From IMG/VR virus record IMGVR_UViG_3300045988_179398, positions 32,001 through 96,000 of that record: a stretch of 64,000 bases of DNA. The stretch is one strand, 5' to 3'. How positions within the stretch are numbered: position 1 is the first letter of the stretch; each line of letters begins with the position of its first letter. The stretch comes from a virus. A program made the position numbers and the translations under genes. The notes beneath the pieces are model-generated. The model saw nothing but the letters and a program-made list of their open reading frames with translations, was not told where the DNA came from and made no database searches. Positions 36,562 through 63,291 of this stretch are shown here, piece by piece.

Positions 36562-36596
36562 AAACGCTTGACAAATCGTTTTCGGTGTGTTATAAT
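36562..36596 (+). promoter_or_regulatory. Consensus phage promoter copy 1 (AAACGC-TTGACA-17-TGnTATAAT)
   Basis: -35 TTGACA at 36568-73, 17-nt spacer, TGTTATAAT with -10 at 36591-96. Confidence 0.8.
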
Positions 36597-47005: not shown

Positions 47006-47660
47006 ATTTCAAAAACCGTTATCGGAAATCGATTATATAATTAGCTTCGACCTCGCGCTTTACAAAACAGGCGTCTCGATTTACGACATTTCTCAAAAGT
47101 CAATCGTCCGAACCGACAAAATCGAAGTCTCGCACACCGATGAAACGCCCGTCGCGACGCTTTATACAAAACTCAAAGAATACCTGACCTCGGCAGTCGA
47201 GAAATACGGCAATTTGCTGATGATCGTCAAAGAGGCGATGCCCGCGCAAGCAGGTCGATTCACGACCATCGCGACGCTCCAAACGCTCGCAAAGGCGCAC
47301 GCGGCGCTCGACATCGCGGTTGCGAAGGTGGACGGAGTAGATTTTTACGACGACGTGGGCGTTCACGCGGTCTCGGTCAAAGCGCTTTTCAAAACCGACG
47401 AAACGCCGAAGCCGACGAAGACCGACATCAAAAAAGCAGTTTGCGCCCATTATGGGCTGAAAGCGGGCGATTTGACGGACGATGAAAGCGATTCGGTCGC
47501 GGTGATTTACACGCTCATAAAGAAGAAGTGGAACGCGGATTTGAAGGACGAGATAAAGCGCGTTAAAAAAGAGATGAAAGGCTTAAAACAAGAACGAGCA
47601 ATCGCCGCTCACGAGAAGAGAATCGAGGAATTACAGGCGATGATTTTGGAGGTAGAATAA
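46998..47660 (+). CDS. RuvC-like Holliday junction resolvase
   Basis: IISFDLALYKTGVSIYD (first catalytic Asp), VKEAMP (Glu), DDESDSVAVIYT (C-terminal acidic pair). GTG start. Confidence 0.6.
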   Translation: MIKFQKPLSEIDYIISFDLALYKTGVSIYDISQKSIVRTDKIEVSHTDETPVATLYTKLKEYLTSAVEKYGNLLMIVKEAMPAQAGRFTTIATLQTLAKAHAALDIAVAKVDGVDFYDDVGVHAVSVKALFKTDETPKPTKTDIKKAVCAHYGLKAGDLTDDESDSVAVIYTLIKKKWNADLKDEIKRVKKEMKGLKQERAIAAHEKRIEELQAMILEVE

Positions 47661-48223
47661 TGGGAATGAATACGGGAGTTCTAACGAGCAACCGAACAAT
47701 CGAAGGTGACGAGCAATACACTCCTTTCTATGCATGCGAACCGATTGTGAAATACGTTCCAAAGAATTGGACGATTTGGTGCCCGTGTGACGAAGAATGG
47801 TCGGCTTATGTGCAGTTATTTAGAGAGCGCGGCTATAAAGTGATTTTGAGTTCTTTATCTGGTGGAAAAGATTTCTTGAAATATGAACCTGACGAACATT
47901 ATGACGTTATAATTACCAATTTACCGTTTTCATTAAAAACCAAAATGCTTAAAAGACTCGATGAGCTTGGAAAGCCATTCGCGGTTTTGTTGCCGTTAAA
48001 CAGCTTACAGGGGCAAGATAGGTTTGAGGTTTTCAGTCACGGGATTCAGTTACTCGCGTTCGATAAAAGAATCGGGTTCCACTCGCCGAAAAGTATGAAT
48101 AAGACAGTTGAAGGCTCACCGTTCGCAAGTGCGTATTTTTGTAGAGAAGTTTTACCGAGAGATTTGATTTTGGAAGAGTTGGTAAAATACGAAAGACCGC
48201 TAATAAAGGAGAAGACATTATGA
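47660..48223 (+). CDS. Putative DNA N6-adenine methyltransferase
   Basis: YDVIITNLPFS resembles the (D/N)PP(F/Y) catalytic motif. Small single-domain phage-type methyltransferase architecture. Confidence 0.45.
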   Translation: MGMNTGVLTSNRTIEGDEQYTPFYACEPIVKYVPKNWTIWCPCDEEWSAYVQLFRERGYKVILSSLSGGKDFLKYEPDEHYDVIITNLPFSLKTKMLKRLDELGKPFAVLLPLNSLQGQDRFEVFSHGIQLLAFDKRIGFHSPKSMNKTVEGSPFASAYFCREVLPRDLILEELVKYERPLIKEKTL

Positions 48224-52208: not shown

Positions 52209-52907
52209 ATGAATATTTTTGAGAAAATTCAAGCGGTGAGAGTTGAACTCCGCCACACAAAACTTAAAATGAGCGGCAAAAACAAGTTCGCGAATTACGA
52301 ATATATGGAACTCGACGACTTTCTTCCCACACTCAACGAACTTATGTATAAGTATAAAATAACGGCGATCGCTTCGTTTACGAGAGAGAAAGCAACTCTC
52401 ACGGCAATCGACTGCGAAAAGCCCGAAGATAGATATACGATTGAATCACCGTTCGGAACAGCCGACCTTAAAGGCTGTCACGAAGTTCAGTGTATCGGCG
52501 CGGTCGAAACTTATCAGCGTCGTTACCTTTATCAGGCGATGTTCGACATCGCAGAAAGCGACGGTTTGAACAAGTCGCAGGGCGACCCGAGCAAACCCAC
52601 TCCGAAGAAGACGGCTGAATTCCCGAGCCATACGGAAGAAGAGCCGCTTCCTGGTGAAGAAAAGCCCTCTGCAAAACCTGTGAAACCCGTTGACGAAAAA
52701 GACCCGAATGGCGCGGAAAGATGCGCAAAAATAAAGGAAGTTTTCAACGCGAAGAGAAAGGCGAAAGAACTGACGACCGATACGCAGAAGGCGATTAAAA
52801 AGTTGTTAGTTGAAAATAGTGAAGACGGCGCGGGAATGTTGAACGAGAATTACTCGGTGAAGGTTTACGACCAACTCGAAGAATTACTCGGAATGGGTGA
52901 GGTATAG
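52209..52907 (+). CDS. erf: ERF-family single-strand annealing recombinase
   Basis: KFANYEYMELDDFLPTLNELMYKYKI...IGAVETYQRRYLYQAMFDIAESD matches the ERF core. Confidence 0.85.
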   Translation: MNIFEKIQAVRVELRHTKLKMSGKNKFANYEYMELDDFLPTLNELMYKYKITAIASFTREKATLTAIDCEKPEDRYTIESPFGTADLKGCHEVQCIGAVETYQRRYLYQAMFDIAESDGLNKSQGDPSKPTPKKTAEFPSHTEEEPLPGEEKPSAKPVKPVDEKDPNGAERCAKIKEVFNAKRKAKELTTDTQKAIKKLLVENSEDGAGMLNENYSVKVYDQLEELLGMGEV

Positions 52908-52990
52908 GTTTGCAACTTCATTAGTTAAAACTGATAGGTTAAGAGCTTCAGTGAAGAGAGAATATATAATCAGAAGGAGGTGATAAGTAA

Positions 52991-54103
52991 ATGTTAAAAG
53001 CGTATAAATACAGATTGTATCCAAACAAACAACAAGAAGAACAAATTCATAAAACTTTTGGCTGTTGCAGATTTGTGTATAATCAAATACTTGCTTATAG
53101 AAAAGAGAAATATAAGCAAGATAAACAACATATGAATAAAATTTCTTGTAATAATTACTGTAATCAAGTTCTTAAAAAAGAATATGAATGGCTGAAAGAG
53201 GTAGACAAATTTGCATTAACAAATTCAATTTATAATATGGATTCAGCATATCAAAAATTCTTCAAAGAACACGCGGGTTACCCTAAATTTAAGAGTAAGA
53301 AAAATCCTAAAAGAAGTTATACTACTAATCTTACGGGTAGAAATATAGAAGTTTCTTTTAACAATAATAAAATCAAACTTCCGAAACTTAAATGGGTAAA
53401 AGCAAAAGTCCACAGAGAGTTTCAAGGACAAATTAAGTCTGCAACTATATCGCAAATACCTTCTGGAAAATATTTTGTATCTGTATTGGTAGAAACAAGA
53501 CATATTCCAATGGATTCAACTGGAAATATGATTGGATTAGATCTAGGTATTAAAGATTTGCTTATTACTTCTGATGGTAAAAAGTATGGTAATATTCGTG
53601 CTACTAAGAAATATGAGAAGAAGTTAGTAAAAGAACAAAGAAAATTATCTCATAAAGTAAAAGGTAGCAACAACTGGAATAGGCAAAGAATTAAAGTGGC
53701 GCGTATCCATGAGAAAATTCATAACACAAGAATTGATAACTTACATAAAATTTCGCATAAACTTATTCAGGAAAACCAACTAATAGTTAGTGAAGATTTA
53801 TCTGTAAATAATATGATGAAGAATCATAATCTTGCAAAAGCAATTTCAGATTGTGGGTGGTATGAATTAACAACACAGTTGGGTTATAAGAGTGATTGGA
53901 ACAATCGACGGTATATTAAGATTGGAAGATTTACCAAGAGTAGTCAATCCTGTAATGTGTGCGGTTATATCAATACAGATACAAAAGACTTATCTGTTAG
54001 AGAATGGATATGTCCTCAATGTAATACAAAGCACAATAGAGATATAAACGCTGCGATTAATATACTCAACGAAGGGTTACGATTGCTTAATGAGGTAGCC
54101 TAA
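52991..54103 (+). CDS. tnpB: TnpB (IS200/IS605-family RNA-guided endonuclease), copy 1
   Basis: MLKAYKYRLYPNKQQEEQIHKTFGCCRFVYNQ. RuvC triad intact (GLDLGIKD, IVSEDLSVNNM, HNRDINAAINI). Zinc finger CNVCGY...CPQCN. No tnpA adjacent. Confidence 0.9.
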   Translation: MLKAYKYRLYPNKQQEEQIHKTFGCCRFVYNQILAYRKEKYKQDKQHMNKISCNNYCNQVLKKEYEWLKEVDKFALTNSIYNMDSAYQKFFKEHAGYPKFKSKKNPKRSYTTNLTGRNIEVSFNNNKIKLPKLKWVKAKVHREFQGQIKSATISQIPSGKYFVSVLVETRHIPMDSTGNMIGLDLGIKDLLITSDGKKYGNIRATKKYEKKLVKEQRKLSHKVKGSNNWNRQRIKVARIHEKIHNTRIDNLHKISHKLIQENQLIVSEDLSVNNMMKNHNLAKAISDCGWYELTTQLGYKSDWNNRRYIKIGRFTKSSQSCNVCGYINTDTKDLSVREWICPQCNTKHNRDINAAINILNEGLRLLNEVA

Positions 54104-54211
54104 AGATATTTAATAGGGTTGGAACAATCCAAATTTACGCTTGTGGAGTTAGTAGGTTACGAGGACGTTGAAACAAGAAACTCATCGAGTTTTAGTTCAT
54201 GGGTAGTTCAC
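54104..54211 (+). ncRNA. Omega-RNA (reRNA) 3' scaffold of TnpB-1 (approximate; the 5' part probably overlaps the end of the ORF)
   Basis: Hairpins TTGGA-ACAA-TCCAA and AAACTC-ATC-GAGTTT. Ends in GGGTAGTTCAC. Its position directly 3' of tnpB is as in characterised systems. Confidence 0.55.
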
Positions 54212-54242
54212 TAAGTTAAACTGCCATTTTTGTTTAGATATG

Positions 54243-54578: not shown

Positions 54579-55115
54579 ATGCAAGTAAAATGTCAAATTT
54601 GCGGCAAATCAATCGACCGTTCAACTGCATATAAAGTCGTGGTCAGCGGCACGAACAAATATTTTTGCTCGGAAGAAGAATTCAACGCTGATAAAGCCCG
54701 CAAAGACCACGCGAAAGAAGTTCTCGAAACGATTGCGGAGTGTTATCAATATTGCTCTGGTTATGGGGAACCGCCTTATAACGTGGTTAAAAAAGAACTT
54801 AAAGAAAACCTCAAAACGGTCGATATCGAGACGATTTATCAATTCGTAAAAGAAAACCGCGAAAAACTCAAAAAGACGATTGAAAAGAAAATCGAACGAG
54901 ATGGACCGTTTTCGCAGGTTTATTTCTTGTTTAGGTATGTGAGTGGGATAATAAAACGGGAAATACTTGAACACGGTTGGAAGGCGGCACAAGTCGCGCC
55001 GACCATTCAAAAAACTGGGATTGATTTGAATTTTTATAATGTCAAACCGAACACAAATCAACTTAAAAAGAGACGCTCGTTAGATGAATTGGAGGATCAA
55101 CTACTCAGCCCTTAA
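54579..55115 (+). CDS. Hypothetical protein with N-terminal zinc-ribbon (CQICGK...YFCSEE)
   Basis: 178-aa ORF with GGAGGA upstream. Confidence 0.5.
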   Translation: MQVKCQICGKSIDRSTAYKVVVSGTNKYFCSEEEFNADKARKDHAKEVLETIAECYQYCSGYGEPPYNVVKKELKENLKTVDIETIYQFVKENREKLKKTIEKKIERDGPFSQVYFLFRYVSGIIKREILEHGWKAAQVAPTIQKTGIDLNFYNVKPNTNQLKKRRSLDELEDQLLSP

Positions 55116-55327
55116 AAAGGTGTGGGCTTGCCCACTAGTTGATCAGACTAAGTGTTAAGCTACGTTATCAAAGAATATATAGGCACCGTAGGATGTATTC
55201 TCCAGTCTTACGCTCTGCGGTATGTGATTAAACAGTTCTGATGAGTAGGAACAGTGTTGCATACGAAAACCTTTGAATAACATTGTCGTGGAGTAACCAC
55301 TCTAACATATAGGAGGCTATAAAAGCA
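55116..55327 (+). ncRNA. IscB-associated omega-RNA (HEARO-type) candidate
   Basis: 212-nt non-coding, comparatively GC-rich segment immediately 5' of iscB on the same strand, which is the known location of IscB omega-RNAs. Its 5' boundary and guide are undefined. Confidence 0.55.
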
Positions 55328-56608
55328 ATGGTATATGTATTAAATAAACAAGATGAACCAATAATGCCTTGCAAGGAAGCGAAAGCAAGAAAATTGCTTA
55401 AACAGAGTAAGGCAAAAATAGCAAAACACGAACCGTTTACAATTCAGTTATTGTTCGATTGTGAAAATCAGATACAAGAAGTAAATTTGGGAATTGATGC
55501 GGGAAGTAAACATATTGGTGTTTCGGCAACGACAGAAAAGCAGGTCTTATACGAGGCAGATGTTGAGCTGAGAAATGATATTGTTAATAAGTTATCTTCT
55601 CGTCGCGAGGCTCGTAGAACTCGTAGAAACAGATTAAGATACCGCCCCGTAAGGTTTAATAATCGAATTAAATCAAAATATAAAGAGTGGTTAGCTCCGA
55701 GTATTAAACAAAAGATAAACACGCATATTCAAGTTATAAAACACTTATACGAAATTTTGCCGATAACAAATCTCATTGTAGAAACCGCTCAATTTGATAT
55801 TCAAAAGATGAATAATTCCGAGATATCAGGTGAAGGATATCAACAAGGTGAACAATTGGGATTTTGGAATGTAAGAGAGTATGTGCTTTACCGCGACAAT
55901 CACGAATGTCAATATTGCCACGGTAAATCAAAAGACAATATATTAAATGTTCATCATATTGAAAGTCGGAAAACAGGCGGAAATGCACCAAATAATTTAA
56001 TTACTTTGTGTGAAACTTGTCATAAAGCTTATCATAAAGGCGAGATTAAATTAAATCTAAAGCGCGGTAAAAGCTATCGGGACGCGGCATTTATGGGTAT
56101 TATGCGTAAAACATTACTTAATCGATTACGCGTGTTATATCCAAATGTTTGCGAAACGTATGGCTATATAACCAAGAACGTTCGTATCGAAAATAACTTG
56201 CCAAAAGAACATTATATAGACGCTCGGTGTATAAGTGGTAATCCAAAAGCAAATCCATTAGATTATTACATTTATCAGAAATGTGTCAGAAGACAGAACA
56301 GACAAATTCATAAAAATAAAATTTTAAGCGGCAGCCGAAAGAGAAATAATCAAGCACCAAGATATGTTTTCGGGTTTAAACTCTTTGATCTTGTAAAATA
56401 TAATAAACAAAATTACTATGTTTTTAGCAGAAGAACAAGTGGCGCCTTTGATATAAGAAATCTTAATGGAGAAAAAATAAACAATGGTTCAATAAGTTAT
56501 AAGAAACTTAAAAAGATTAAACACAATTCAACAAAACTAATAGAAAGGAGGCGGCAATTCCTCTGCATCTCTAAAAGGGATGTGGTTTCTTTGCCGAAAA
56601 TTTTATGA
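55328..56608 (+). CDS. iscB: IscB (OMEGA RNA-guided nuclease; PLMP + split RuvC + HNH)
   Basis: PLMP domain VYVLNKQDEPIMPCKEAKARKLLKQSKAKI..PFTIQL. RuvC-I LGIDAGSKHIG. HNH CQYCHG...VHHIESRKTGG..NLITLCETCHKAYH. RuvC-III HYIDARC. Confidence 0.85.
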   Translation: MVYVLNKQDEPIMPCKEAKARKLLKQSKAKIAKHEPFTIQLLFDCENQIQEVNLGIDAGSKHIGVSATTEKQVLYEADVELRNDIVNKLSSRREARRTRRNRLRYRPVRFNNRIKSKYKEWLAPSIKQKINTHIQVIKHLYEILPITNLIVETAQFDIQKMNNSEISGEGYQQGEQLGFWNVREYVLYRDNHECQYCHGKSKDNILNVHHIESRKTGGNAPNNLITLCETCHKAYHKGEIKLNLKRGKSYRDAAFMGIMRKTLLNRLRVLYPNVCETYGYITKNVRIENNLPKEHYIDARCISGNPKANPLDYYIYQKCVRRQNRQIHKNKILSGSRKRNNQAPRYVFGFKLFDLVKYNKQNYYVFSRRTSGAFDIRNLNGEKINNGSISYKKLKKIKHNSTKLIERRRQFLCISKRDVVSLPKIL

Positions 56609-59232: not shown

Positions 59233-59430
59233 ATGTTGACAGGTGATGTTAGAGAAAGAGTTGTTAAAGAGCAAAATGAACTGCGTGACAAAATAACGAA
59301 ACTCGCGTTGTTTATCTATTCCGAAAGAATTAACACGGTTTCCAAAAAGCACGCTGGTTTGCTCAAAGCACAACTTCATGCAATGGAAGAATACGACGAG
59401 ATTCTGACTGAAAGGTTGAAATCAGACTAA
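59233..59430 (+). CDS. Hypothetical small helical protein
   Basis: 65-aa ORF with AAGGAGG upstream. Confidence 0.55.
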   Translation: MLTGDVRERVVKEQNELRDKITKLALFIYSERINTVSKKHAGLLKAQLHAMEEYDEILTERLKSD

Positions 59431-59806
59431 AAACTCGGTGCCTAACGCCTTGAACGGTGGTGGTCCAAAGGTGGTTAAATTGGGAAGCGCCCAGCCGAGT
59501 AAACGTTCACTGCGGCGACTGCGGTATGTAAAAGTCGTAGGTATAGCGCCACCGTTAAACGCGCCAGTTATTGGGGTCAACTAAAGGCGGCGGATAGTTA
59601 ATCCGTGTAGCAACCCTTAGAGTTGGTGGTGTAAAAATCTCTTAAAACCACTTATGGGCGAAGTGAGTAGAATCAAATTGCCTCGCCGCTGACCAATATG
59701 CGGGATAAAAGTGGTTGGGTCGACAAGTATTAAAAACAGAGATAACTCGAACTGTTTTCCTATGGACGGTTTTCCCCAAAGTACACGGGGATAGGGTTAT
59801 TTATAT
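59431..59806 (+). ncRNA. Large structured non-coding RNA candidate (segment A, may extend to 60160)
   Basis: No ORF with an RBS. GC is higher than in neighbouring intergenic DNA. Long-range pairings ACTCGG (59433-38)/CCGAGT (59495-500) and AACGGTGG (59453-60)/CCACCGTT (59549-56). Local hairpin CGGAT-AGTTA-ATCCG (59591-605). Confidence 0.5.
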
Positions 59807-59877
59807 GCCCAAGTAGCTTTACGGCAAAGTAATAAGAAGCTTCTTATTAGCTATTGGTTCGACTCCAATCTTGGGAT
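59807..59877 (+). ncRNA. tRNA-like element 1 (aberrant anticodon arm, no encoded CCA)
   Basis: Acceptor stem 6/7 bp. D-arm GCTT-TACGGCA-AAGT. T-arm ATTGG-TTCGACT-CCAAT. The anticodon arm is the palindrome AATAAG-AAGCTT-CTTATT, so the loop is at most 6 nt. Confidence 0.45.
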
Positions 59878-60160
59878 CGGGTGAAGTTGAGGCAGTCATT
59901 CACTCCCTGAAAAAAAGAAGGCATGGTGTATTTGAGAAGGTCCTAATTATGACCTAAGTTATCCGAAGTCTTTTCTCAATAAAATGAGATTAAAGAATGT
60001 AGAGATAAGCTCATTAGGATGTTAACTAATGAGAGTGTAAACTAACTAGTCAGTTATCTATACTTTATTGACTTTAAAATAATGCCAAGGGGCTAGAGGC
60101 CGCACTAGTATAAAATTGTCGGATTTTCGCGAATGACGCCTCGGAAAGACGAGGATGCAT

Positions 60161-60232
60161 GCCCTCTGAAGACTGGGTGGACGGTTGCTTGATCACCAAT
60201 CGTGCGTAGTTCGAATCTGCGGGAGGGTGCCA
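60161..60232 (+). ncRNA. tRNA-like element 2 (encoded CCA, 9-nt anticodon-type loop, no clear D stem)
   Basis: Acceptor GCCCTCT/GGAGGGT (two G-U pairs). T-arm CGTAG-TTCGAAT-CTGCG. 3' tail GCCA. Central arm ACGGTTG-CTTGATCAC-CAATCGT. Confidence 0.45.
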
Positions 60233-60256
60233 ATAAAAAAAACGAAGGTGATTAAA

Positions 60257-60394
60257 ATGGGACTTTTAAGTTTTTTAGACAAAATATTCAGTCAGGGCTA
60301 TGAAAGCATAGAAGATTATTGTAATCAAAATGGGTTAAATTATACGGATTTGCCCGAACCCGATGATTACTATGATGATGACGATGATGATTAA
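60257..60394 (+). CDS. Small acidic protein (45 aa, poly-Asp C-terminus)
   Basis: ATG 7 nt after AAGGTG. Translation MGLLSFLDKIFSQGYESIEDYCNQNGLNYTDLPEPDDYYDDDDDD. Confidence 0.4.
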   Translation: MGLLSFLDKIFSQGYESIEDYCNQNGLNYTDLPEPDDYYDDDDDD

Positions 60395-60460
60395 AAAAAA
60401 CATAGGTTTGTAATTTTTCCTCCGAAGGCAGCAGGTTAATGTTAATTCGCGTCGCGTTCT

Positions 60461-60489
60461 TTGCGTTGTCCACAAAGTGTGCTATACTT
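60461..60489 (+). promoter_or_regulatory. Candidate extended -10 promoter for the second RNA unit
   Basis: TTGCGT (60461-66), 17-nt spacer, TGCTATACT with -10 at 60484-89. Confidence 0.4.
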
Positions 60490-60495
60490 AATTTA

Positions 60496-60807
60496 CCACA
60501 ATCAAGTATGGCGAAAGCCATCAAGTATTTGTTGGGTATGCTTTAAGGTTTCACCAACCAACCCAACTTTACGGAAGTTTACTCAATGTTGGCAAAGAGG
60601 ACGGTTTGCTAAACCGTTAGGTCTTCGTAAGAAGGCGAGCAGGATCGACACCTGCAACTTCCGCCAGTAACGTTGGGGAAGAAGAAGAGAAAGCGGGGTT
60701 TGAGAGCGCGCGCACGAGTCGTAACTCATCGAAGGCGATTACCTCGGTTAGACGTAAGATTGCTACGTTTTTTGCGAGTTTTTCGGTGAATAAAACTCGT
60801 ATTTTAT
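60496..60807 (+). ncRNA. Structured non-coding RNA candidate (segment B, leader of tRNA-Trp)
   Basis: No credible ORF. GNRA-capped hairpins ATGGC-GAAA-GCCAT (60508-21) and CTTC-GTAA-GAAG (60623-34). Hairpin ACGGTTT-GCT-AAACCGT (60601-17). Confidence 0.45.
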
Positions 60808-60882
60808 GCACCTTTAGTATAACGGTATTATCCTGGCCTCCAAAGCCATGGGAACTGAGTTCGAATCTTAGAGGGTGTGCCA
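60808..60882 (+). tRNA. tRNA-Trp (anticodon CCA), CCA end encoded
   Basis: 75-nt cloverleaf. Acceptor GCACCTT/AGGGTGT. D-loop AACGGTA. Anticodon loop CT-CCA-AA. T-arm CTGAG-TTCGAAT-CTTAG. One C-U mismatch at 27:43. Confidence 0.8.
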
Positions 60883-61010
60883 GAATCCTGCGGTAGGTAT
60901 ACATACGCGCAGTCCGAAGCTATTGGCGGATAGAGAATTGATGTATAGCTATCATCACACGCAGAGCTGGTCGTGCTCGACAGAAGAACCCAGCCCATTT
61001 ACTTGACAAA

Positions 61011-61046
61011 ATTGTCCACGCACGAATGTGCGTGGACAATTTTGAT
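61011..61046 (+). terminator. Rho-independent terminator
   Basis: ATTGTCCACGCAC-GAA-TGTGCGTGGACAAT followed by TTTT. Confidence 0.75.
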
Positions 61047-61073
61047 TGATATATATTTTAAAATATTAACAAT

Positions 61074-61108
61074 AAACGCTTGACAAAACTTGAAAAGTAT
61101 GTTATAAT
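61074..61108 (+). promoter_or_regulatory. Consensus phage promoter copy 7 (drives tnpB-2; probably a hybrid of phage -35 and element-borne -10)
   Basis: AAACGC, TTGACA at 61080-85, 17-nt spacer, TGTTATAAT with -10 at 61103-08. Confidence 0.8.
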
Positions 61109-61133
61109 GGCAATAGAAAAAGGAGTGACAAGT

Positions 61134-62234
61134 ATGGAAAAGTCTTATAAATTTAGGATATATCCAAATGAAAAACAGCGTGTGTTAATGGCGAAGACTT
61201 TTGGTTGCGCAAGGTTTGTGTATAATTATTACCTTGATAAAAAGATTAAAGTATATAAAGAAACGAAGCAATCGATAAGTTTTTATGCTTGCTGTTTAGA
61301 TTTAACGCTTCTTAAAAAAGAAGCCGAATGGCTTAAAGAGGTTGATAAGTTTTCATTGCAAAACTCATTACGAAATTTAGATGCCGCTTATCAGAAATTC
61401 TTTAAAGAACATTCTGGATATCCTAAATTTAAGTCTAAACACGATAATAGAAAATCATATAGGACAACGTTTACAAATAATAATATCGAATTTAAAGAAG
61501 GATATATAAAATTACCGAAACTTGGATTAGTGAAATTCCGAGACGAGCAAATTCCGCAAGGAAGAATATTAAATGCGACGATTTCTCAAGTTCCGAGTGG
61601 AAAATATTATTGTTCGATTTGTTGTACTGATGTTGTTATGGACGACTTACCCAAGACGGGTTGTGTTCTCGGAATAGATTTAGGGCTAAAAGACTTTTTA
61701 ATTACAAGTAATGGCGATAAAGTTTCTAATCCGAAGTATCTGTCTAAATCTTTAAACAAGCTTGCTAAATTACAAAGAGCGCTTTCGCGAAAACCAAACG
61801 GAAGCAATCGTAAAAATAAAGCAAGAATAAAGGTTACAAGACAGTATGAAAAGATTACAAACCAACGCCAAGACTTTTTGAAGAAATTATCGACTAAACT
61901 CATACAAGAAAACGATATTATCTGTTTAGAAGATTTGCAAGTCGAGAATATGGTTAAGAACCATAAACTTGCAAGATTGATAAACGATGTATCGTGGTTT
62001 GAATTTAGACGACAACTTGAATATAAAGCCAAATGGTACGATAAACGAGTTGTAGCCGTAGATAAGTTCTTCCCAAGTAGTCAAATTTGTAGCTGTTGTG
62101 GTTATGTCAATAAAGAAACAAAGGACTTAAAGGTTCGCAAGTGGGTGTGCTCTGAATGTGGAACAAAGCACGATAGAGATATAAATGCAGCGAAGAATAT
62201 CTTAAACGAGGGTTTAAGATTATTGAATTGTTAA
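61134..62234 (+). CDS. tnpB: TnpB, copy 2
   Basis: Start at [15 protein letters not shown] after AAAGGAG; the track's 61080 start runs through the promoter. RuvC triad intact ([30 protein letters not shown]). Zinc finger CSCCGY...CSECG. Confidence 0.9.
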
Positions 62235-62344
62235 TAATTTAAAATAGATAAGAACCGCAGGAACTGCGGGGATAGCTCGGTAAATATCCACACAGTAGTG
62301 TGGAGTTCCCGAGAAATGCGCGACTTTAGTCGTATGATGTTCAG
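62235..62344 (+). ncRNA. Omega-RNA 3' scaffold of TnpB-2 (approximate)
   Basis: Hairpins CCGCAG-GAA-CTGCGG, CCACAC-AGTA-GTGTGG and CGACT-TT-AGTCG, enclosed by CTCGG/CCGAG. Ends in GATGTTCAG. Confidence 0.55.
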
Positions 62345-62368
62345 ACGGTTTCTTTTTTGTGTTATAAT
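62345..62368 (+). promoter_or_regulatory. Orphaned spacer + extended -10 (TGTTATAAT) of a disrupted consensus promoter
   Basis: TATAAT at 62363-68 lies at normal distance from the kinase gene SD/ATG. The -35 position holds TTCAGA instead of AAACGCTTGACA. Confidence 0.6.
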
Positions 62369-62388
62369 AATTGTGCTTGGAGGTAATT

Positions 62389-63291
62389 ATGGGAAATTTC
62401 ATTTTAGTAATGGGTCTGTCTGGAAGCGGAAAATCACATTGGATAAGTGATATCGTCGAGGAAGGGAACACAATCATCTTATCGAGCGACGCGCTTCGGA
62501 AAGAATTTTACGGCGACGAAAGAATTCAGGACAACCCCGCCTTTATATTCGAGCAAATGCGTATAAGAACGTTACAGGCGTTAAAAGAAGGTAAAAGCGT
62601 TACTTACGACGCGACTAACCTCAGCTCGAAGCGTCGTAAGGCGTTGTTGAAGCAATTGCCCAAAGATGTTTATAAAATCTGTCATTGTATTATTACGCCC
62701 CTCGAAAAATGTATCGAGAACGATTCAAAAAGAGAAAGGCACGTTTCGGAGCGCGTAATTATGCGGCAGTTGGAGCAATTCGAGGTGCCGTGGTTTGATG
62801 AGGGTTGGGATACAATTTTCGTGATAAAACCATTTGGCGACGCCCCGTTAAAAGTCAATCTCAATGTAATGCACGATTGTTCGAAATATCACAAAAACGA
62901 CACGATCAATAATCATATCGCAAGGGTTATACAAGCGGTCGCATTGAAGCCGAATGTTGAAAAAGGCGATCGCGATGTTCTTCTCGAGGTAGCGTGGTTT
63001 CATGATATCGGGAAACCGTATACAAAAACCTTTTATGACAAAAAAGGAAAGCTCGGAGAAAACGCTCATTATTATAACCACGAAAACGTGGGTGCTTATT
63101 TATATATGGTTTCACATGTAGAAGGGGCGGCTTACGGAGATAGAGAAAATATGTATAACGACCTTTTTCTCGCGTGGCTTATCAATAACCATATGATTAT
63201 CTGGAATAATCAAAAAAGATATAATTCATTTAACGAACATATCAAACATTTACTTAAAATATTCAGTGAATGCGACAAGGAGGGTGCTTAA
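62389..63291 (+). CDS. P-loop polynucleotide-kinase-like domain fused to HD phosphohydrolase domain (RNA end-healing candidate)
   Basis: Start at MGNFILVMGLSGSGKSH (Walker A) after GGAGG. The C-terminal half carries H...WFHDIGKP...HENVGAY (HD domain). Confidence 0.6.
   Translation: MGNFILVMGLSGSGKSHWISDIVEEGNTIILSSDALRKEFYGDERIQDNPAFIFEQMRIRTLQALKEGKSVTYDATNLSSKRRKALLKQLPKDVYKICHCIITPLEKCIENDSKRERHVSERVIMRQLEQFEVPWFDEGWDTIFVIKPFGDAPLKVNLNVMHDCSKYHKNDTINNHIARVIQAVALKPNVEKGDRDVLLEVAWFHDIGKPYTKTFYDKKGKLGENAHYYNHENVGAYLYMVSHVEGAAYGDRENMYNDLFLAWLINNHMIIWNNQKRYNSFNEHIKHLLKIFSECDKEGA

Follow-up and report, generated by a model that had tools for sequence, protein, structure and literature searches.

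The tnpB-2 locus and its right junction

In the current work, a 64,000-nt stretch of gut phage DNA (positions 32,001-96,000 of IMGVR_UViG_3300045988_179398; hereafter the window, to which coordinates refer unless a contig is named) was analyzed with respect to an element that is located upstream of a kinase/HD gene and that contains tnpB-2 and the sequence specifying its omega-RNA. The tnpB-2 gene (61134-62234, on the plus strand as are all features of this locus; 366 amino acids plus stop codon) was recognized with Pfam and is preceded by a Shine-Dalgarno sequence, GGAG, at 61122-61125. The TnpB-2 protein exceeds the cut-offs for the domains HTH_OrfB_IS605 (PF12323), OrfB_IS605 (PF01385) and Cas12f1-like_TNB (PF07282), and matches the ISDra2 TnpB structures 8bf8/8exa with E = 2e-104. 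As an earlier note on this DNA had claimed, its RuvC triad is intact, with D, E and D at the equivalents of ISDra2 D191/E278/D361.

The omega-RNA scaffold coincides with the right end (RE) of the element, and its tested part, which ends in TTCAG, spans positions 62236 to 62344 as delimited by covariation and by the end of conservation; the true 5' start of the omega-RNA is probably located inside the tnpB-2 open reading frame (ORF). The family scaffold has the general sequence AAGAACCGYAGGAACTRCGGGGATAGCTYGG...CCRAGAA-hairpin-GAGGTTCAG, or terminates in -GGTTCAA, and is organized as three helices, in which 17 of the 26 base pairs exhibit compensatory changes across a 34-sequence alignment; the RE hairpin is present in the window at 62314-62334. 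As a separate observation, the Ref70 family ('Enterococcus sRNA 70', RF02841) gives a weak but full-length match to 62249-62361 (28 bits, E = 0.04, model positions 1-122), which spans the scaffold plus 17 nt of flank, and this small RNA family may itself be a TnpB omega-RNA.

TnpB-2 was compared with 80 relatives from viral contigs and at least 80 from metagenomes, and searches with the kinase protein and with ERF yielded the related phages L001-L004, L184, L186-L189 and L190-L195. The GenBank phage collection contained no near match and gave distant TnpB hits only. A scan of bacterial genomes retrieved TnpB-2 relatives of at most 70% amino acid identity from Oscillospiraceae, Ruminococcus and Lachnospiraceae, which hints at the host range, and, as far as the junction is concerned, provided one useful left end (L199) and nothing else.

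In about 40 distinct relatives of the element the conserved scaffold ends at ...GTTCAG or ...GTTCAA, at the position corresponding to 62344, where the 3' non-coding segment of tnpB-2 ends ...GATGTTCAG, and beyond this point the sequences diverge completely. Homology between the window and the related phages restarts exactly at 62345, and an uninterrupted kinase promoter, reading ...GTTATTTTGC-TTGACA-CGGTTTCTTTTTTGTGT-TATAAT, was found in 10 related contigs (L001-L004, the metagenome contig L085, L184 and L186-L189). In these empty sites the sequence following GC-TTGACA is CGG[TC]TT...TATAAT, and there is no target duplication (TTGAC/ACGG, the slash indicating the junction). Therefore, the element lies 3' to TTGAC, and its RE is followed by the promoter spacer. 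The earlier note had proposed that a tnpA-less TnpB/omega-RNA element resides in the kinase promoter, that its right end is exactly 62344, and that the flank following the RE (ACGGTTTCTTTTTTGT...) is what follows TTGAC in the uninterrupted promoter, all of which is borne out by the conservation of the RE across the family and by the 10 empty sites. The features that it quoted (AAACGC, TTGACA, the 17-nt spacer, TATAAT, the RE end, the extended -10 and TTCAGA) were likewise found where it had placed them. It had arrived at the junction by rebuilding a promoter from the two flanks, and this joining does work; considering that the -10 is fixed, however, the reconstruction tests a single base, the A at 62345, and it is because of the outside evidence from family conservation and empty sites, and not because of the reconstruction, that the right junction is taken to be real.

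What is left of the kinase promoter (62340-62368) comprises TTCAGA (62340-62345, generated by the RE end plus the A), where relatives have a -35 of TTGACA, then 17 nt and the extended -10 TGTTATAAT (62360-62368), the ATG of the kinase gene being located at 62389. The -35 agrees with the consensus at 4/6 positions and the promoter as a whole at 10/12 plus the TG, with the extended -10 being intact. The kinase/HD gene itself (62389-63291; AAA_33 and HD by Pfam) is also intact, its product being 85-95% identical to those of relatives at the amino acid level. In the element-free contigs L001, L004 and L189 a terminator-like hairpin (GAAACCGTG...CACGGTTTC) with a subsequent T-run carries the kinase -35 in its loop (for example at L001 5930-5970), so that terminator and promoter overlap in these relatives, and in the window this terminator is split by the insertion. 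Expression of the kinase gene is likely to result from transcripts that read through from the tnpB promoter, from initiation at the weakened TTCAGA/extended -10 promoter, or from a combination of the two. The element region forms an island of low GC content (30-35%, versus 42-46% in the phage).

The promoter of tnpB-2 and the left end of the element

The arrangement TTGACA-N17-TATAAT occurs seven times in the window, where 0.04 would be expected by chance, each time on the plus strand and each time preceded by AAACGC (at 36562, 46107, 48711, 50912, 54283, 59027 and 61074). The last of these belongs to a block in front of tnpB-2 (61050-61108), which consists of an AT-rich sequence, AAACGC (61074-61079), the -35 TTGACA (61080-61085), a 17-nt spacer containing TG, and the -10 TATAAT (61103-61108). 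The earlier note had positioned the left junction within this block, at 61084/61085, and had interpreted the promoter as a hybrid in which the -35 of the kinase gene is joined to a spacer and -10 supplied by the element. Neither claim withstood comparison with L085 and L086, which, among the matches listed, encode the closest relatives of TnpB-2 (84% amino acid identity) and are both full group A IStrons, i.e. IS200/IS605 elements with a group I IA2 intron, inserted after TTTAT. From 5' to 3', these two loci have TTTAT, a left end (LE) with the TnpA hairpin CTCGCGACTTTAGTCGTGAG, ≈470 nt of structured RNA, ...CTTATATATTTTAAAATATTAACAAT-AAACGC-TTGACA-AACCTTAAAAAGTATGT-TATAAT, tnpB, the omega-RNA and ...GGTTCAG, and the structured RNA of L085 corresponds to the Rfam group I intron RF00028 (69 bits).

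The promoter block thus sits between the group I intron region and tnpB in both IStrons, which occupy two other sites: that of L085 is inserted in the kinase coding sequence (CDS), by which it is flanked on both sides and whose own promoter is intact, and that of L086 is flanked by homologs of window positions 47330-47509 and 47511-47666. Window 61050-61140 aligns to this interior block at 90-92%, and 61050-61108, i.e. the promoter and the 24 nt upstream of it, differs from L085/L086 by two substitutions only (alignment read by eye), even though the synonymous divergence of tnpB is ≈0.9; the corresponding dN/dS of tnpB-2 is ≈0.1. Comparison of these loci has shown that the predicted promoter of tnpB-2 belongs to the element and is not a hybrid with the kinase -35, and the hybrid appearance arises because the element carries a consensus promoter of its own. 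The empty site that had been predicted on the basis of the hybrid, AAACGCTTGACACGG..., which would place AAACGCTTGACACGGTTTC... directly upstream of the kinase gene, disagrees with the 10 relatives, as these read TT[TC][TC]GC-TTGACACGG, with TTTTGC, TTCCGC or TTTCGC, and never AAACGC, before TTGACA. A search with the first 19 nt of that 35-nt site returned two hits in unrelated viral contigs/phages, which were judged to be due to chance. The insertion had accordingly been assigned correctly to the position right after the -35 TTGAC of the kinase promoter, but the wrong TTGAC had been chosen as its junction, and the element measures ≈1.34 kb (1,337 bp) instead of the ≈1.26 kb proposed.

The promoter class of the phage clade, being an AT-rich ttttaaaa block, AAACGC, TTGACA, N17 with TG, and TATAAT, was encountered in L001-L004, L184, L190-L195, L085 and L086. 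The sequence AAACGCTTGACA is present in every locus of the clade and in the L085/L086 IStrons and in none of ≈155 other TnpB loci, which indicates that the resident IStron lineage carries a promoter of the clade type. An origin of the locus by recombination between two GCTTGACA promoters was considered and rejected, since a truncated kinase gene would be the result and the gene is intact.

Homology to the phages extends as far as 60996 and homology to the element sets in at 61050, and no counterpart of the intervening 53-nt orphan (60997-61049) was present in 164 loci or among viral contigs; an exact search of viral contigs for the left junction of the window, CCCAGCCCATTTACTTGAC, and for the hairpin of the orphan also found nothing. 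Across the family, 29 distinct left-end junctions were read, in which the transposon-adjacent motif (TAM) is TTGAT (24), TTTAT (4) or TCGAT (1), and the LE that follows it has the general sequence TAAAT[TC]G...ACGCAC and then the TnpA hairpin ACTCGTGACTTTAGTC. Within the orphan, the pentamer TTGAC (61003-61007), which is the likely TAM and, in the left flank, the likely remnant (first five bases) of the kinase -35, and which precedes ACGG in the 10 empty sites, adjoins, in the register of the family, an LE-like 16-mer, AAAATTGTCCACGCAC (61008-61023), which includes GCAC, the 'guide' tetranucleotide found in left ends of the TTGAT type. This 16-mer agrees with genuine LE starts at 13/16 positions for L199 and L133, where the equivalent 16-mer directly precedes the TnpA hairpin, and, in the same register, at 12/16 for L148; TTGAC plus AAAATTGTCCACGCAC thus resembles the TTGAT plus TAAATTGCGAACGCAC, or T plus AAAAGCGACCACGCAC, which precede the TnpA hairpin in real elements. 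In a TAM+19 weight matrix the LE site at 61003 ranks 13 of 127,954 window positions, and an nhmmer LE model lacking the inner hairpin has its top window hit at the 61008 segment. The chance of an LE-like hit that falls in this 53-nt segment, specified beforehand, next to a TAM-like pentamer and in register, is roughly estimated at 3e-5. We are therefore rather confident in placing the left end of the element at 61008, 77 bases upstream of 61085.

The inner hairpin of the LE (ACTCGTGACTTTAGTC...) is absent from the window copy, and its place is taken by a fold-back of the first 16 nt, in which 61028-61043 is the exact reverse complement of 61008-61023, producing a perfect 16-bp hairpin with a GAAT loop (61008-61043; -28.2 kcal/mol, z = -9.4) that could serve as terminator after the tRNA array. 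No tnpA ORF is present between 61008 and 61134 or after tnpB in the element, and Intron_gpI gave no hit at the gathering threshold in the window and none at E ≤ 1 in 59400-62500. The empty site of this lineage is predicted to be CCCAGCCCATTTACTTGACACGG. With regard to the adjacent phage DNA, a block located after tRNA-Trp (60883-60996) is 93-97% conserved in L001, L003 and L004 and was called by neither ARAGORN nor Rfam, and the tRNA array between this block and the kinase gene differs in every relative.

Origin of the element and competing explanations

Segment 61008-62344 is probably a non-autonomous relic of an IS200/IS605 element belonging to the group A IStron (CdISt1/ISDra2-like) lineage. 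Such a relic may have originated by single-strand transposition into the near-cognate target TTGAC instead of TTGAT, followed by an internal fold-back and deletion that would have retained the first 16 nt of the LE but not the TnpA-binding hairpin or the group I ribozyme, with the consequence that the element would no longer be mobilised or spliced. The tnpB transcript may run through the omega-RNA scaffold into the flank, thereby generating the guide ACGGTTTCTTTTTTGT. More tentatively, TnpB-2 carrying this guide may act on the uninterrupted promoter in co-infecting relatives, either by cutting or by binding it. The element would thereby be more readily copied or retained, provided that a C is tolerated at TAM position -1.

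Group A IStrons, such as CdISt1 of Clostridioides difficile, are inserted 3' to TTGAT, ATTAT or TTTAT and have TCAG as their 3' terminus (PMC4227781), and within this family copies with TnpB only are common, RE and omega-RNA overlap, and the TAM is TTGAT or TTTAT (PMC4227781; 10.1101/2023.11.20.567912). The closest TnpB relatives of the window element are full IStrons, and the element shares with these the 3' terminus TCAG (...GTTCAG at 62344), in which the terminal G serves as omega-G. It differs from them in that the ribozyme, present in L085, and the TnpA hairpin of the LE are missing, in that it occupies a promoter rather than a coding sequence, and in that it carries a promoter of the phage clade. 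Furthermore, the 5' flank of group A IStrons ends in T, whereas the TTGAC of this element ends in C, in the window as well as in the empty sites, and this C cannot provide the U that the 5' splice site of a group I intron requires. The element therefore falls outside the definition of a group A IStron on two points, the lack of a ribozyme and a 5' flank ending in C, and, being without LE hairpin and tnpA, it is not a mobilisable IS200/IS605 element. With the TnpB of ISDra2 from Deinococcus radiodurans, TnpB-2 shares the equivalents of D191/E278/D361 and of K76, F77, Q80, T123 and N124, as well as a guide located 3' to the RE; Y52 and S56, which contact TAM position -1, are F and C in TnpB-2, and the window element differs from ISDra2 in being phage-resident, without tnpA and truncated in its LE. 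A guide complementary to a promoter is also characteristic of TldR proteins, i.e. nuclease-dead TnpB-like repressors that bind promoters. A TldR-like repressor was rejected because the RuvC triad of TnpB-2 is intact; in addition, there is no TAM at the self copy (TTCAG), and no sign of repression was noted.

Several observations weigh against the explanation as a transposed IStron relic with its left end at 61008. No TAM of the family ends in C, since the 29 junctions, and a few more with another first base that were read by eye, all end in AT. Look-ups of the exact protein, made in search of an intermediate allele, returned 17+20 contigs, all with the same structure as the window, and thus no intermediate. 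Window-wide, the nhmmer LE models give short hits with E = 1.9-4.3, which are not significant alone, and, the hairpin being palindromic, its minus strand aligns to the LE about equally well; the LE at 61008 is accepted because of its position, its register and the adjoining TAM, and not because of these E-values. The left flank matches no relative cleanly (only ATTTAC-TTGAC versus TTTTGC-TTGAC), and ≈330 nt of L189, the closest empty-site relative, comprising two tRNA-like genes and the left arm of the terminator, are missing in the window, so that an extra deletion or a recombinant left flank must be assumed. Finally, the window omega-RNA may be impaired, since position 62338 is T within a GAGG that is otherwise invariant, and since its last stem, as read by eye, contains a C.A mismatch.

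A single deletion, beginning in the tRNA region (after 60996) and reaching into the ribozyme of a full IStron inserted after TTGAC, would account for the locus with one event instead of two, and would agree with the abrupt end of phage homology at 60996 and with the small hairpin that L085 and L086 also possess just upstream of the promoter block. According to this explanation, 60997-61049 would represent the interior of a lineage-specific IStron, the TTGAC at 61003 would be coincidental and no copy of the TAM would be left. It is regarded as unlikely, as the orphan starts with TTGAC plus a 16-mer that matches LE starts at 12-13/16 positions in the correct register, and is similar to no IStron interior among the 164 loci. 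There is a small chance that the junction was not produced by transposition at TTGAC, and that the cassette was instead brought in or trimmed by illegitimate recombination or by an adjacent deletion whose end coincided with the RE terminus; this would fit with the rearranged left flank and with TTGAC not being a TAM of the family, in which every LE junction read ends in AT. A deletion extending to the exact last base of the RE is improbable, however, and would have to be accompanied by a TAM-like pentamer that is also restored on the left in LE register; in addition, the K76-type residues of TnpB-2 fit TTGAx, and homology restarts exactly at the predicted RE end for two other OMEGA elements of the window.

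The model of the earlier note, in which the element starts at 61085, AAACGC-TTGAC is one half of the kinase promoter and the LE supplies the spacer and -10, has in its favour that fusion of 61074-61084 to the sequence from 62345 yields a consensus promoter whose spacer is 17 nt, and that AAACGC precedes all other consensus promoters of the window. It has become highly improbable, given that the whole of 61050-61108 is found inside L085/L086, that none of the relatives has AAACGC in its kinase promoter, that the 35-nt empty site was not seen in any of the 10 contigs with an uninterrupted site, and that the 49 nt between TTGAC and the tnpB-2 ATG contain no LE features.

Target recognition, possible homing and neighbouring elements

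In ISDra2 TnpB, the TAM is contacted by N124, which reads the T at -5, by F77 and T123 (T at -4), by K76, which reads the G at -3, by Q80, which reads the A at -2, and by Y52 and S56, which touch the T at -1 through van der Waals contacts only (PMC10097598). The equivalents of Y52, S56, K76, F77, Q80, T123 and N124 in TnpB-2 are F, C, K, F, Q, T and N, and since K, F, Q, T and N are as in ISDra2, its TAM is predicted to be TTGAx, unlike that of its nearest relatives L085 and L086, which have A and C at the equivalents of 76 and 77; TTGAC would fit this prediction at 4/5 positions. Among 34 family loci with known TAM, the K76 equivalent is K in 27/27 with xxGAT and A or S in 6/7 with TTTAT; with L126 as the one exception, no TnpB column was found that discriminates perfectly between TTTAT and xxGAT. 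The GCAC in the LE of the window is of the TTGAT class, elements with TTTAT having GAAC or CAAC (LE alignments read by eye). As observed by eye, this tetranucleotide (GCAC versus GAAC/CAAC) covaries with the K76-equivalent residue, and the TAM class can differ between TnpB proteins sharing 84% identity. With regard to the C at -1, point mutations in the TAM strongly reduce cutting by GstTnpB2 (PMC10055086).

The predicted 16-nt guide, ACGGTTTCTTTTTTGT (62345-62360), is located directly 3' to the RE and corresponds to the spacer of the kinase promoter. After TTGAC, it is identical at 16/16 positions in L001, L004, L085, L184, L186 and L187, at 15/16 in L002 and L189, and at 14/16 in L003 and L188. 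As a side observation, the scaffold motif GATAAGAACCG (62247-62258) is nearly complementary to CGGTTTCTTTTTT (62346-62358) of the guide/flank, and when the RNA is folded on its own, the guide is taken up by a long-range helix; this complementarity is probably a coincidence of the insertion site.

Occupied and element-free alleles of one TnpB/omega-RNA site thus coexist in related gut phages, and the guide matches the free allele perfectly. In TnpB retention or 'non-restorative homing' (Meers et al. 2023; a plasmid gene drive is cited in PMC13565253), the guide equals the post-TAM sequence of element-free alleles, and such alleles exist here; the present case differs in that an empty donor site generated by TnpA is impossible and in that the target TAM is one base off the family consensus. 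Against homing of TnpB-2 into element-free alleles speak the lack of natural TAMs ending in C in the family, the effect of TAM mutations on GstTnpB2 and the two changes in the window omega-RNA. Such homing may be possible, and the presence of both alleles together with a perfect guide match makes such homing of OMEGA nucleases between co-infecting phages directly testable. Rather doubtful is the further proposition that the phage maintains TnpB-2 as an RNA-guided weapon or gene drive, which would recognize TTGAC, the core of the -35, plus the kinase-promoter spacer of element-free relatives and would cut the DNA of co-infecting relatives or block their promoter. If this were true, relatives would be converted to the tnpB-bearing allele or a competitor would be excluded, the three polymorphic OMEGA elements present in a 10-kb stretch would be the phage counterpart of islands of free-standing homing endonucleases, and TnpB-2 would be expressed from a phage-type promoter captured by an IStron lineage.

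The understood way of working of this family is unchanged by these findings. They do indicate that an IStron lineage resident in a phage clade carries the promoter type of that clade, and that an IStron outside a CDS, after a pentamer that would prevent splicing, can lose the ribozyme and the transposase-binding hairpin yet keep tnpB and the omega-RNA. Moreover, in natural elements the identity of one residue, the ISDra2 K76 equivalent, goes along with whether TAM position -3 is G or T, which is useful for TAM prediction.

Two further elements are present nearby. The second OMEGA element of the window (52901-54211; GC content 27-31%) contains tnpB-1 (52991-54103, 370 amino acids), a second copy that is 54% identical to tnpB-2. 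It is absent from the same site in 6/6 relatives examined, which read GGTGA/ATAAGC there, and homology restarts exactly at 54212 after an RE ending ...GGGTAGTTCAC, so that its guide would start TAAGTTAAACTGCC. An IscB element (55097-56606), consisting of a HEARO omega-RNA (Rfam RF02033, 119.6 bits, 55096-55300) and iscB (55328-56608; RRXRR and HNH), lies between an upstream gene and a DnaB-like helicase gene and is absent there in six relatives; L194/L001 carries an 84%-identical iscB elsewhere, in its tRNA region.

The window also contains the uninterrupted counterparts of two IStron sites. At 47506-47526, which corresponds to the site of the L086 IStron (inserted after TTTAT, with guide ACGCTGATTAAG...), the window reads TTTAC/ACGCTCATAAAG; the change at TAM position -1 is a synonymous TAT-to-TAC (Tyr), and this TTTAC could be a TAM-escape variant or a coincidence. 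At 62542-62562, an intact TTTAT/ATTCGAGCAAATGCGT agrees at 15/16 positions with the guide of the L085 IStron (L085 1-2067), of which the window phage would be a candidate target.

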